From Octopus vulgaris (lineage: Eukaryota): a stretch of 64,000 nucleotides of DNA. Below are positions 15,874 to 57,155 of this stretch, piece by piece. The DNA lies in assembly GCA_951406725.2 (NCBI GenBank), contig OX597821.1:60016001-60080000 (forward strand), in the 5' to 3' direction. Position numbers and translations under genes: made by a program. Numbering within the stretch: the first letter of the stretch is position 1; every line of letters starts with the position of its first letter. Below the pieces are notes generated by a model that saw only the letters and a program-made list of their open reading frames with translations, had not been told where the DNA came from and did no database searches.

Positions 15874-15917
15874 CTTACTTGCAGAAGAGAAATAACGCAT
15901 GCGTTTGGTCATATAAT

Positions 15918-16810
15918 TATATAATAAATAAATAAAATATATGCATATATACATACATATATGTACATACTTACATCTACATGTATATATACATGCATAT
16001 ATATATATATATATATATATGAGTACAGGACACCACAACTAAACGTAGAACATGAGACAAAAACATAAAATCAAACAAAGAAACGGACTTTTTTTTAACA
16101 ACGAGAAAACAAGGAAACGGACTTTTTTTAAAACAACGAAAAAACAGAGTACAGGACAAACAATACAAGGAAAATTCCCCTTCATCAGCTGCCCCTGGTT
16201 CGACTCAATGCGTGTTTCGAAGGTAAGGGCAGAACACGGCCAGGCTGAAGCAGTCCTTCCTGCAAAAAGAATTAAATAAAATTCTTTTGCAAGCCGATTT
16301 TTCACATGCGTTCTAACTAATTTTTCCACCGTCTAAGCAAAAAAAGCCCTTATTGTTGGTTCCCTGTCCTGTTTCTTTATTTGTACTGTTTTTTCTTCAT
16401 TTGTATTGCTTTTACGTCCTGTTCTTGTCACTTGTTTTACCCCTCTGCAAAAGAATTTTATTTAATTCCTTTTGCAGGAAGGACTGCTTTGGCCTGGCCG
16501 TGTTCTGCCCTTACCTTTGAAACACGCATTGAGTCAAACCAGGGGCAGCTGATGAAGATGAATTTTCCTTGTATTGTTTGTCCTGTACTCTGTTTTTTTG
16601 TTGTTTTAAAAAAAGTCTGTTTTCTTGTTTTTTCGTTGTCAAAAAAAAGTCCGTTTCCTTGTTTGATTTTATGTTTTCGTCTCTCGTGTTCAACGTTTAT
16701 TTGTGGTGTCCTGTACTCATATATATATATATATATATATGCATGTATATATACATGTAGATGTAAGTATGTACATATATGTATGTATATATGCATATAT
16801 TTTATTTATT

Positions 16811-16819
<9 letters not shown>
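15918..16819. repeat. Long fold-back inverted repeat: ~374-bp arms, 154-bp spacer, flanked by (TA)n
   Basis: 15918-16291 is the reverse complement of 16446-16819; the ORF track shows mirrored near-identical peptides on opposite strands. Confidence 0.95.
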
Positions 16820-16856
<37 letters not shown>

Positions 16857-20569: not shown

Positions 20570-20760
20570 GCTGAACATTAAGCCTGATGGAGGCATAGTG
20601 GCTGAGTTCCCTTCAAGCATTGGGCCTGATGGAGACAAAGTGGCTGAGTTCCTTTCGAGCATTGGGCCTCATGGAGGAGAGGTGGCTGAGTTCTTTTCAA
20701 ACAAGCCTCACAGAGGTGTGGTGGCTGAGTTCCTTTTGAGTGTGGGGCCTCCTGGAGGTA
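20570..20760 (+). repeat. 42-bp minisatellite, about 4.5 units, at the 5' side of a family C repeat
   Basis: GCTGAGTTC recurs at 20601, 20643, 20685 and 20724. Confidence 0.9.
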
Positions 20761-24289: not shown

Positions 24290-24700
24290 TGGCCTAGGAG
24301 CTTTTATATGTGACACTAGCACAAGTGCTTTATATGTGTCATGGGCACAGGTGCTTTATATGTGCCATGGGCATAGGTGCTTTACATGTGGCACGGGCAC
24401 AGGTGCTTTACATGTGACACAGGCACGGGTGCTTTACATGTGACACAGGCACAGGTGCTTTACATGTGGCACAGGCACAGGTGCTTTACATGTGGCACAG
24501 GCACATGTGCTTTACATGTGGCACAGGTACAGGTGCTTTACATGTGGCACAGGTAGAGGTGCTTTACATGTGGCACAGGCACAGGTGCTTTACATGTGGC
24601 ACAGGTAGAGGTGCTTTACATGTGACACAGGTACAGGTGCTTTACATGTGGCACAGGTGCTTCACATGTAACACAGGCCCGTGCTTTATAAGTGGCACGG
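24290..24700. repeat. 26-bp minisatellite, about 15 units, expanded from a family C element
   Basis: Unit acaggtgctttacatgtggcacaggc; period 26 (gcttta at 24431 and 24457); follows the family C body at 24115-24290. Confidence 0.95.
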
Positions 24701-30469: not shown

Positions 30470-31078
30470 GTGCAGGAGTGGCTGTGTGGTAAGAAGTTTG
30501 CTTCCCAACCTCATGGTTCTGGGTTCAGTCCCACTGCATGGCATCTTGGGCAACTGTCTTCTACTATAGCCTTGGGCTAACCAAAGCCTTGAGTTGATTT
30601 GGTAGATGGAAACTGAAAGAAGCCCATCATATATATATATATATCATCATCATCATCATCATCATTTAACGTCCGCTTTCCATGCTAGCATGGGTTGGAC
30701 GGTTCAACTGGGGTCTGGGGAGCCAAGTAAATATATGGCACAACGAAGTACCGATATTTACTGGAAATAGCGAACGTATATGTGTGCAGGCATATCTTGA
30801 AAAATCTGAAACTGGCTCCGGTCCCACATTATCCTTTTCTAGGTATTTCATCTTTCAGATGTTCTCCCTGGAGGTAAGACAATTTTTTTCAAGTTTGTTG
30901 CACTCACGCATTTTTGTTAGTACATACGCAGTGAAGCTATACATTAGCGTCGTATTATTACATTCGCTATTTCCAGTAAATATCGGTACTTCGTTGTGCC
31001 ATATATTTACTTCTATGTATAATTTTCCCTCATGGGCTATTCTTTACTGGAAAGCAATACTCTCGTATTGCATTACTA

Positions 31079-31119
<41 letters not shown>

Positions 31120-31350
31120 TACATGTATGTATGTATGTATTTGTGTCTGTGTTTGTCCCTCCATCATCGCTTGACAACCAATGTTGGTTCATTTTTGTCC
31201 CCATAAATTTGCAGTTCAGCAAAAAGAGACCAATAAAATAAGTACTAGACTTGCAAAGAATAAGTCCTGGGGTCAATTTGTTTGAGTAAAGGCAGTGCTC
31301 CAGTATGGCAGCAGTCAAGTGAGTGAAACAAGTAAAAGAATAAAAGAATA
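30468..31350 (+). mobile_element. SINE family A with a family C fragment and a fold-back element nested in its TA tract
   Basis: Head 30468-30628; 3' module resumes about 31140-31350. Confidence 0.8.
30725..31081 (+). mobile_element. Fold-back element 1 with structured 3' end
   Basis: 30725-30778 is the reverse complement of 30959-31012 (54 bp, 1 mismatch); the right arm continues into hairpins and then (TA)n. Confidence 0.8.
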
Positions 31351-31452
31351 TATATTATCTATATGATGTATGTATGTAAGTTTATGTGTTTCTTTTTTTT
31401 GAAAAGTATACAAGACGTAGGTGTTTCTGTGTGGTAAGAAGTTTGCTTCTTA

Positions 31453-31687
31453 TGAGGTGCAATTTGGCTGAATGGTTAAGAAGCTTGCTTAGGAAGAAAA
31501 GACCCTAGGATCGAGTCTTCCCTATGTCATTTCGAGCAAATATCACCTTTTATCGAGGGTTTGTTGGTCGTTGGGTGCTAACATCCCTCTCATCTGTATC
31601 ATTTTGTTTCATTTCATCTCATCTTGTCCATGTCCAGCCCACAAGCTTCTATCTGTGTACTGCCCTTGTGGCAAATTATATGAAATA
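31453..31687 (+). mobile_element. Rare tRNA-headed SINE with 17-bp target-site duplication
   Basis: TSD AAGAAGTTTGCTTCTTA at 31436-31452 and 31688-31704; A-box-like TGGCTGAATGGT, B-box-like GGATCGAGTC; inserted in a family A head. Confidence 0.8.
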
Positions 31688-31822
31688 AAGAAGTTTGCTT
31701 CTTAATTACATGGCTCTGTTCAGTCTCATCATGTGGCACCTTTAGTGAGTGTCTTCAATAGCCTCAGGTTGCCCAAAGCTTTGTGAGTGGATTTGGTAGA
31801 CGGAAACTGAAAGAAGCCCATC

Positions 31823-31865
<43 letters not shown>

Positions 31866-31874
31866 GCAAAATTA

Positions 31875-32150
31875 TAATTTAGGATATCTAAGAGATACCA
31901 CCATGCTGGAAATAACAGCCAAAACTTGACTCTAAAACCACATTAAATGTTCATACAGTCTTCTCTCTTGGTGCTGTATGAACATTTAATGTGGTTTTAG
32001 AGTCAAGTTTTGGCTGCTATTTCCAGCGTGGTGGTATCTCTTGGATACCCTAAATTAAATTTTTAATAATAATTATTACCTTTGAAGGTTTTTATTCCCA
32101 TGCTGGCTACTTGATAAGTTCGATATTTCAATAACGATCTTATCCTTATT
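31875..32150 (+). mobile_element. Fold-back element 2 with structured 3' end
   Basis: 31875-31958 is the reverse complement of 31974-32057 (84-bp arms, 15-nt loop); (TA)n on both sides. Confidence 0.8.
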
Positions 32151-32160
32151 TATATAATTT

Positions 32161-32191
<31 letters not shown>

Positions 32192-32211
32192 CATATATAT
32201 ATATATGCATG

Positions 32212-40804: not shown

Positions 40805-41598
40805 GTAGCCAAGATAAAACTCTGAGTTTCGGATGCCGAGGTGGAAATCCACACCACTATCTTTTCAGTTATCCAGCCATCGGAAAAACGCTATGAAAAA
40901 TGACCGTTATACAATGGGAAATTATTGTGTTATTGACCGCTATTTAGACAAAAGAGCTATTTGAATGACCGCTAATTAAGGTAAGGGGGTAAAAAGTTCA
41001 TAGTATACGCGTAAGTGCGCCTGTTCATACATACACATGTGCACCTGCACACCCACGTGCGTACGCATACATTCATCCACCCTCACTAGAAAAACGTACA
41101 CATCTTCACTTGCATCTTTCGCCAAATGTATATGCATATACATACAAACCCCCCCACACACATGCACACTGTAAAAGTTCATACATACGTCTACATATGC
41201 ACAAGCACAAGAAAAAACAGGGTTAAGGGTAATACAGAAAAAAGGCATAAGGAAGTATACAAAGAGTAAACCACATTCATATACGGACATACCCTTATGC
41301 ACGCACACGCACGCATGCCCATATATGCACATACCCGCACACGTCTATATATGCATACACACACACACATGCACAAGAAGGATTAAACATACGTGTATAC
41401 TATGAAATTTTTACCCCCTTATATTAATTAGCAGTCATTCGAATAGCTCTTTTGTCTTAATAACGGTCAATAACACAGTAATTTCCCTTTGTATAACGGT
41501 CATTTTTCATAGTGTTTTTCCGATGGTTGGATAACTGAAGAGATGGTGATGTGGATTTCCATCTCGGCATCCGAAACTCAGAGTTTTATCTTGGCTAC
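40805..41598. mobile_element. Inverted-repeat element, ~209-bp arms, one hammerhead motif per arm (Penelope-like inverted terminal repeats)
   Basis: 40805-41013 is the reverse complement of 41390-41598; motifs at 40812-40874 (-) and 41529-41591 (+); TA runs lie just outside both ends. Confidence 0.85.
41529..41591 (+). ncRNA. Type I hammerhead ribozyme motif
   Basis: GGATAA-CTGAAGA-GATG(gtgatgtggatttccatctcgg)CATC-C-GAA-ACTCAGAGT-T-TTATCT; quasi-palindromic stem III ACTC-A-GAGT. Confidence 0.7.
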
Positions 41599-54755: not shown

Positions 54756-56940
54756 ATTCAACAGCATATTCATAAATTTCCTCACAAACTATAATCTCAC
54801 TTAATATGACATATTTTTCATATGAAAATATTTTTTTACTTTCACTTATAAAGTGAAAATAAATCACTGTTTTACATGCATCTGAATATTTACAAATTTT
54901 GTGAACTATGTTCTTTTAGCGAATAATTTAATCTTTCATCCCCTAACATAAAGCTGAATCCCTCCCTATGTCAAGGTTCTTTGTTTTGTGAACTGCATGG
55001 TGACCTCAAAAGAGCTGGTGGCATGACAAAAGCATGCATCACATGTTGTAAAGTGCTTAGCATTAAGAAGAACATCTAGCTGTAGAAACCATGCCAAAGC
55101 AAGCACTGGCGTACAATAGTCCTTGGACCCATCAGATTCTGTCACAGCATTCAAGCCATGTCAGGATGGAACATGGACATTTAAATGATGCTGATGCTGA
55201 TTTATTTTCGTCTTCCACTAAATAATCAATAATGAAATCTTTATTTTATATAGATTTTTCTAATTTTCCAAAAATCAGTTGGAGATAATTCTTTAGATTT
55301 TTTTCCTAGATGTCCTTGGAGGAGTCTTTCTTCCCAGAAAAAGCCATGTTGATTGATAATCTATACACTGTTTTCAGTATTTTCTGTTGAAATATTAGCT
55401 TTGGCTTTCTAGAGAAGCAGCTTTATGCATACAATATTCATAATGCTAGCATAACCCCAGACATTCCACTCTGGTTTCTTTATCCACTCCATTCTTTAAA
55501 ACCTCATTGTATTTCCTTAGAATCCTTTTTGCTTTGATTGATCAATAACTAAAAGAAACCATCAACATAGTTCAGTTATTTGATGATTTCTTATACATTT
55601 ATTCCCAGTCAGTAGCTTAATAATATATTCAGATAATATACTGCAAACAGTCTGTTACTGTAGCTACAGTTCTTGTCTCTGATGATGCCAATTCTATCGC
55701 AAACACTAACAAAGAATAAAACAAGTGGAGAGAATTGAGTGCTCTCAAGATAAAGTAGGAGCCATAATCTGGGATTCTATCCAAGTTATAAATCTTCGAC
55801 TAGGTTGGTTCTCTCAGTGCAACTCTAAAAAGCTGTACAGTGCAATCTTCTAAAAGAAATTCCGGAAAACTACAAATACAGTATAAACTACTTCTTGTGA
55901 AAAGAAGGGAAACAGTTTTATCATACTGCTGAAAAATATTTTCAATGTATTATATAACAATCAGTTTTTTTAAAACAGTTTTCTACTGAAGTTATAAAAA
56001 TACAATAAAAAATAGTTTATCTTCAAAACTATGCAATGAACAGAAGCATTTTTCTCATGGTTGAGCAATAGTACATTTTAATAGTACTACTCACATTTAT
56101 TTCTCATCTTATTGCTCCTAGGAAAGAAAGCTTCTCCAGACATTTTAGATTTGCCTTTCTTCTCTCCAGATTTCTGAAATCTCTTTTGTTGTTCCTTTGT
56201 TAGTGTATAGAAACCATTCTCTGAGAATTCTACTTAGTTTCCTGAATTTAAGGGAAAGACAGCATTCACTTCTATAAATAGCTCTCCATTGGTCCAATTA
56301 AGTTTAGAGTCTACAGTTGAGGATGTCTAATGTTTTGGTTAGATTTTAAATACTGGTCAAGAGGAAGTTCTTTAGAAGGACTTCATAACTGATTTCTTAG
56401 GTTGGGACAGCCAAACAATAATGTCTTGTATGATTTCATTTGCACTTATACAAACAAGAACTTTGTCTTGCTTATTATGAAAGAGTTCTACTTGGGCTGA
56501 TGGTTTAATAAAGATTTGCTAAGTACACAAAAGAATTTTATAATGTTTTTTTTTCTTCCTTACTTTCTATTTCTTGCCGTTTGCATATTGTTGACTAAAA
56601 CAGGGAATACAGCAATTTCTGGTTTTCTTTAATTTAGCAACAGTGGTTTTTACTAACTGCATGCTCTTGTATGAAGTCTTCTTAACACTCATGTTAAGTT
56701 TAGCAAAGGTTGTTGTTTAAACTCAAATCAGCTTAAATTCAGTAGACCCTATGATCAGTAACATTTCAGCTGTGACAACCCATCTTTTTCTTATGTGCAG
56801 GGAACCTAATTATATATGCAAACTACACTTCACATAAAAATAAACACACACATTCATATATAATCATATCATACACATACAAAAGATATGTTTCAGTTAT
56901 TGTATGTAAATAAATATATATATATATATATATATATATG

Positions 56941-57155
56941 AATTTTTTTCTGTAATGAGATAAAAAAACCAAGGCTGTGTAGATTTTAGAACATTTATAG
57001 ATAGAAGGTCTTACAATTGTTTCCAGGATATTTATTATATCCCTTCATCAGAGACAAAGGGATACAATAAATATCCTGGAAAGACCTATCTATAAATGGT
57101 CTAAAATCTACACAGCCTTGGTTTTTTTTTTTTATCTCATTACAGAAAAAAAATT
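56941..57155. mobile_element. Fold-back element, ~100-bp arms, junction at a hammerhead
   Basis: 56941-57045 is the reverse complement of 57057-57155 apart from small indels; (TA)n on the left. Confidence 0.85.
57008..57055 (-). ncRNA. Minimal type I hammerhead ribozyme motif
   Basis: rc GTCT-CTGATGA-A-GGGATAT(aataa)ATATCCT-G-GAA-ACAATTGT-A-AGAC; perfect palindromic stem III, GUA triplet. Confidence 0.8.

Follow-up and report, generated by a model that had tools for sequence, protein, structure and literature searches.

A conserved RNA domain at the insertion ends of octopus retrozymes, a probable signal for Penelope-like reverse transcriptases

Introduction

Metazoan retrozymes without long terminal repeats (non-LTR retrozymes) are described, in the available parts of PMC7229834 and of the preprint 10.64898/2026.07.22.740005, as head-to-tail repeats that lack an open reading frame (ORF) and carry one type I hammerhead ribozyme per unit, and the accessible text of PMC7761336 states that their repeats hold no conserved motif indicating their partner. 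Insertions of Penelope-like elements (PLEs), in turn, comprise an inverted truncated copy with a tail at one end only (PMC8557442 and PMC3846280, each in part). PMC11167929 reports that purified PLE protein cleaves AT-rich DNA on both strands and begins reverse transcription from two internal positions of the RNA, with the sequence that separates these two start sites forming the PLE tail. Here, we describe two elements of Octopus vulgaris that share features with both systems. They lie at 30725-31081 (element 1) and 31864-32160 (element 2) of the window, that is, the whole stretch of 64,000 nucleotides (nt) that was analyzed (assembly GCA_951406725.2, contig OX597821.1, positions 60,016,001 to 60,080,000 of the forward strand). 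Their ends share an RNA fold, which we interpret as the probable signal that recruits a Penelope-like reverse transcriptase (RT)-endonuclease in trans and sets both of its priming sites.

The families that carry this fold (hereafter, fold families) resemble metazoan retrozymes in their low GC content and their co-occurrence with PLEs, and a molluscan retrozyme is known from mussel (350-390 bp). In contrast to metazoan retrozymes, fold-family units are longer (430-560 nt), reside at (TA)n tracts, form inverted insertions with a one-sided tail, and share a conserved non-catalytic RNA domain. Both hallmarks of PLE architecture, the inverted truncated copy and the tail at one end only, are present in fold-family insertions. 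The Penelope-like pseudo-LTR (pLTR) and tail, including the internal initiation of Poseidon of Anolis, share with them an inverted 5'-truncated copy, a one-sided tail, two start sites, AT-rich targets, and an upstream hammerhead. However, the PLE tail is 30-40 nt long whereas that of the fold families is ~60-110 nt, and the inner site, an AC-rich stem-loop in PLEs, is in the fold families formed by the AU loop of a three-helix junction. Unlike known PLEs, moreover, the fold covaries across many families, and these are without an ORF. The element class is already known (retrozymes, PLE tails, internal initiation), and it is the conserved RNA domain that appears to be undescribed. Full-text searches of the literature, with Repbase, Dfam, and subscription papers outside their scope, turned up no account of a conserved fold at retrozyme termini, so that the families may already be catalogued as repeats. 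The word 'ribozyme' is absent from the available part of the octopus repeat annotation (PMC13282606).

Shared RNA fold and covariation

The initial annotation had proposed that both elements end in a multi-hairpin fold, based on a series of helices and the motifs GCTATTT, ATAATT, and TATTC. All of these were located (P1 at 30973/31043 and 32023/32098), and P2, P3, and the terminal hairpin follow in the same order in both elements. The partial inverted duplications, 30725-30778 with 30959-31012 (98%) and 31868-31958 with 31974-32064 (93%), are likewise present, as are (TA)n tracts adjoining both elements. An upstream hairpin, P0, had escaped notice; the conserved GCUA forms its 3' strand. The features of the two elements are as follows.

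30725..30778, minus strand: element 1 inverted piece, 98% complementary to 30959-31012, stopping in the AU loop after P2
30779..31081, plus strand: element 1, forward copy of family 1 (monomer 429-443 nt), truncated at its 5' end and carrying the long end
30779..30832, plus strand: 3' half of a type I hammerhead in element 1 (stem II 3' side, GAAA 30808-30811, stem III, UC 30822-30823, stem I 3' strand), assigned from the complete core of longer family-1 loci and a pairing check
30945..30969, plus strand: P0 hairpin of element 1 (pair probability 0.97)
30973..31050, plus strand: P1-closed junction of element 1 (P2 30985-31000, AU loop 31001-31026, P3 31027-31036)
31013..31021, plus strand: short-end site in the AU loop of element 1, a putative second priming site (bin with the ends of 19 inverted family-1 pieces)
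31054..31071, plus strand: P4 terminal hairpin of element 1, with the long end ~10 nt downstream
31082..31109: (TA)n tract bordering element 1 on its long-end side
31828..31863: (TA)n tract bordering element 2 on its short-end side
31864..31958, minus strand: element 2 inverted piece, stopping in the AU loop (short end)
31959..32160, plus strand: element 2, forward copy of family 2 (monomer ~476-488 nt), with its truncation point downstream of the hammerhead
31991..32110, plus strand: element 2 domain (outer helix 31991-31994/32107-32110, P0 31998-32019, P1 32023-32031/32098-32106, P2 32033-32049, AU loop 32050-32077, P3 32078-32089)
32113..32144, plus strand: P4 terminal hairpin of element 2
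32161..32206: (TA)n tract bordering element 2 on its long-end side

The outer end of the element 1 inverted piece adjoins unrelated sequence, not TA. Relative to shuffled sequences, element 1 folds at -32.6 kcal/mol on the plus strand (z -6.7; minus strand z -3.9) and element 2 at -32.5 kcal/mol (z -3.1; minus strand z -3.4); for element 2, therefore, z alone cannot choose the strand. The competing hairpin that had been pointed out in element 1 does exist, but the mean pair probability of P1 in the full copy is 0.91. An alternative helix, specific to family 1 (30975-31011; AGTAAATAT/ATATTTACT), extends P2 and excludes P1, and could arise in RNAs that terminate at the short site.

A sequence-light structural descriptor matched both elements and one other copy in 586,605 bases, with no match in a reversed control. 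MAFFT misaligned families 1 and 2, and covariance-model alignments, which lean towards structure, were used instead. A covariance model built from family 2 alone recovered family 1 weakly (expectation value E 0.08-0.5) together with a third family, and two rounds of model rebuilding and scans of sampled loci brought in further families. At least 12 families or subfamilies of divergent sequence carry the fold, kept by compensatory changes, which bears out the covariation that had been proposed from two copies. Three candidates with less convincing folds (L203, L210, and L282) were excluded from the 12-family set.

Structural ensembles of 12 representatives share a common order: P0 ending in GCUA; P1, closing P2, the AU loop, and P3; a CCACU-type linker, which often pairs upstream of P0; and P4. 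Conserved nucleotides include GCUAUUUCYA and CCACU. Across 22 matches, mostly from unselected stretches, 85.6% of cells were paired as compared to 67.9% when shuffled and 34-42% when slid, with double-sided changes at 17 of 19 pairs; an earlier 32-row alignment gave 91.7% paired cells and double-sided changes at 18 of 19 pairs, both alignments being model-fitted and including some rows that are partial or spurious (about 5 of 32 in one set, retained). Strands exchanged between families (one copy per family) paired at 76, 65, 41, and 76% for P1-P4, as against 83 of 84 for P1 within families, where pairing is true by construction. Rfam returned no match to the fold (0 at the gathering score over the whole window) and, over both elements, sub-threshold matches only (hairpins, TA tracts, and one weak overlap with a small nucleolar RNA).

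Insertion ends

The proposal that the fold marks the terminus of a mobile element is supported by insertion ends, which map onto it. Of 325 aligned pieces, drawn from six families, 189 stop at a TA run and the other 136 continue into tandem or other sequence. Mapped with the domain alone as the reference, the 189 TA-abutting ends fall in the AU loop (68), just after P4 (119), or in P2 (2). In six families, ~5-25 nt separate P2 from the short end, and the long end follows closely on P4; short ends are scattered over ~20 nt and do not mark one bond. When the whole family-1 monomer served as the reference, the same two sites dominated and other AU-rich parts were rarely ends. Loci with TA-abutting ends on both strands combine a long with a short end in 56 of 59 cases (two long ends in 2, other in 1), the loci having been chosen as best matches that include the long end, a selection that forces one long end and not the short one.

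Hammerheads, monomers, and copy number

Both elements had been thought to carry a different RNA in place of a hammerhead. This did not hold: full-length copies of both families have a type I core 102-142 nt upstream of the motif. The reported absence of a CUGANGA/GAAA core is correct for the truncated copies in the window only, and even there element 1 keeps GAAA at 30808 and UC at 30822-30823, with a predicted cut at 30823/30824. The 5' boundary of element 1 lies inside stem II, leaving GAAA, stem III, and the UC site, and that of element 2 lies downstream of the ribozyme. The window copies thus lack half (element 1) or all (element 2) of the hammerhead because of 5' truncation and inversion.

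Using a purpose-made core descriptor, we found the CUGANGA...GAAA core upstream at 26 of 30 family-1 loci in one count and 23 of 30 in another, at 8 of 30 family-2 loci, and at 9/30, 10/20, 17/20, and 20/20 loci of four other families. A type I hammerhead (core and stems I-III) lies 66-142 nt upstream of the fold in all 11 of the 11 families tested, one copy each, and cores recur at monomer spacing. Head-to-tail spacing in six families is 429-443, 487 (monomer ~476-488), 484-492, 438, 485-493, and 543-563 nt, and tandem spacing (429-563 nt) was seen at 12/30, 1/30, 2/30, 1/20, 16/20, and 12/20 of their loci. The six monomers have almost no mutual BLAST similarity, the exception being one stretch of 73% shared by families 2 and 3. 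The longest ORF starting with ATG in three monomers encodes 85, 66, and 45 amino acids (aa). No PLE ORF directly upstream of the fold was found in the family loci, and no ORF with RT and GIY-YIG domains; the monomers are ORF-less and so are not autonomous PLEs. Because the upstream hammerhead core, the head-to-tail monomers, and the lack of an ORF match published non-LTR retrozymes, we consider both elements, with high confidence, to be 5'-truncated copies of such high-copy tandem retroelements.

DNA searches of the octopus's own genome (2.8 Gb) returned 1995 first-look candidates for family 1 (94-98% identity) and 2825 for family 2 (92-95% identity), 40 of which were scored for each. These numbers and the dozen or more families supersede the two copies available to the initial annotation. 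Four further families yielded 1457, 2080, 909, and 1339 candidates genome-wide; the latter two are 99-100% identical and therefore recently active. A pattern of the shared motifs gave 558 exact matches and a second pattern 147, against none in the control for either (reversed, in the case of the first); the second revealed further variants. About 15 full copies were counted in 1.03 Mb and none in a further 180 kb, from which a rough extrapolation arrives at a per-genome copy number in the tens of thousands.

Autonomous Penelope-like elements

Two abundant autonomous PLE types were recovered, one Neptune-like (20,965 candidates, 150 scored) and one Hydra-type (20,748 first-look candidates, of which the top 150 scored have 96-98% amino-acid identity).

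L344:899-4669, minus strand: Neptune-like element, whose 819-aa RT-endonuclease frame has a 323-aa open frame on its upstream side
L091:1390-3543 and L061-L093: Hydra-clade PLE, with a 717-aa ORF in L091

In the former, which we take from its motifs to belong to the Neptune clade, the 3' end holds a degenerate hammerhead-like motif, and the Hydra-type element has a CCGAAGA variant of the hammerhead core. At TA tracts, both families show the two-end pattern of the fold families, with 35-62 nt between the short and the long end. The 717-aa ORF bears RWK, DKT, and CxCX5C, which characterize the Hydra clade according to the available part of PMC8557442, and has no match in Pfam. Where model matches near autonomous PLEs were inspected, they proved to be separate neighboring insertions.

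Some fold families are joined directly to autonomous PLE pieces (L199, L274), and in one case two fold families to each other (L010/L234); template switching was weighed as the origin of these joins, but nested insertion explains them equally, and they were not counted as evidence. Joins without TA were noted at L199:7600-7900 (minus strand), in L274, and at L010:2070-2520, where a fold family meets a Neptune-like ORF fragment, a Hydra-type terminus, or another fold family. Rare motif-pattern variants outside all examined families occur at C1:163868716 (-), C3:73595824 (+), C9:86944799 (-), and C13:24410140 (+), and are candidates for an autonomous partner.

Elsewhere in the window, an inverted pair (40799-41016/41387-41604) with a hammerhead core at 41535 resembles a Hydra-type PLE terminus. 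Three TA-tailed elements with hammerhead-like cores (1880-2060, 15911-16826, and 56900-57100 on the minus strand) have termini unlike the fold and are probably further PLE or retrozyme families. Two tandem arrays are also present, at 24303-24657 (26 nt, 13.7 copies) and 20582-20700 (42 nt, 2.8 copies).

Discussion

The 3' ends of short interspersed elements (SINEs) mimic those of their partner long interspersed elements, and the 3' untranslated region (UTR) of R2 and the template-boundary elements of telomerase RNA are structured RNAs that recruit an RT and set where copying starts. By analogy, the octopus fold likely acts as these do, although it differs in having two start sites and neither a tRNA head nor poly(A). 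Recognition by an RT, one of the roles suggested in the initial annotation, is the function that we infer to be most likely. Tandem transcripts would self-cleave into monomers or circles. A PLE protein, probably as a dimer, would then bind the fold and nick both strands of a TA tract; synthesis of complementary DNA (cDNA) would be primed by one nick immediately 3' of P4 and by the second within the AU loop, with TA/AU microhomology assisting at both. Joining of the two cDNAs at their truncated 5' ends would produce a fold-back insertion with a tail of 60-110 nt on one side only.

Several results weigh against such recruitment, in addition to the model-fitted alignments, the family-internal pairing given by construction, and the choice of loci by their long end. 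Both end sites are the most AU-rich single-stranded stretches, and therefore microhomology with TA alone could favor them. Family 1 is without the CCACU linker and the outer helix, one representative is without a clear P3, and another is without a clear P2 register. Rfam models did not recognize the hammerheads of these families. An autonomous ORF-bearing parent, which the initial annotation had recommended seeking, was not found to end in the fold among the PLE families sampled in ~2 Mb, a sample in which a low-copy partner can have been missed. The Hydra-type and Neptune-like termini are other sequences with no model match, a second Hydra-type element (L148) does not end in the fold, and neither does any of the other PLE C-terminal fragments found by profile or tblastn in the sampled loci. 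The fold is also absent, by four motifs (which line breaks can hide) and by eye, from the published octopus Naiad ends and the Hydra hammerhead row in the accessible part of the PMC8557442 supplement.

The strongest competing explanation is that the fold serves the RNA circle itself, through stability, binding of a ligase or host protein, or folding or silencing of the hammerhead, with the end sites being accessible AU stretches that anneal to the TA target. The helices are retained when natural monomers are folded as circles, as such a role would have it, and the missing autonomous PLE with the fold fits it too; in the available part of PMC7229834, moreover, the hammerhead in metazoan circles is argued to be blocked in vivo by an unknown mechanism. 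However, this explanation accounts neither for the positions of the short and long ends relative to P2 and P4 in six families, nor for the pairing of long with short ends, nor for the rarity of ends in other AU-rich parts of the family-1 monomer, and we regard it as unlikely. Family-1 sequence is present in sequencing runs of six coded organisms, none recorded as RNA. Contigs of four runs presumed to be RNA cover much of the monomer, one going back 432 nt, but genomic tandems would also explain them, and strand, ends, and circles are not readable from them. In metagenome contigs, a pattern scan gave 66 stretches and no convincing copy, the best model score (E 0.8) being treated as chance.

Could the junction instead be a second, unrecognized ribozyme whose self-cleavage within the AU loop generates the short end? 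A multi-helix junction with conserved nucleotides, without an Rfam match and with the short end inside it, would suit such a ribozyme. Yet every family tested already has a hammerhead, the conserved bases lie mostly in helices while the junction strands vary in length and sequence, and the short ends are spread rather than focused, which together make a second ribozyme improbable. That the signal acts as DNA, as a cruciform or an endonuclease recognition site in donor or target, is least plausible of all, since G-U pairs recur at several helix positions on the hammerhead-bearing strand and in 9 of 12 families this strand gives the better fold, even though the antisense equals or exceeds it in the other 3 and the accessible part of PMC11167929 recounts that Penelope tail DNA is needed for endonuclease recognition.

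Recruitment of a Penelope-like RT-endonuclease by the fold thus remains the reading that we prefer. More tentatively, these retrozymes may own an RT-capturing RNA domain that is not derived from the end of any partner, a template-boundary-like scaffold with two priming sites, one for each cut TA strand. If true, such a scaffold for the telomerase-related PLE RT would explain the one-sided tail and the fold-back insertions of Penelope-like elements. The domain is compact (~150-200 nt), a dozen covarying versions of it occur naturally, and its two end sites are mapped; as such it is suited to the published in vitro PLE priming assay. It touches on how PLE proteins choose their RNA, how one-sided tails arise, and which machinery moves animal retrozymes. 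Should recruitment in trans be borne out, RNA-templated insertion at TA repeats would gain a portable cis signal in this domain.
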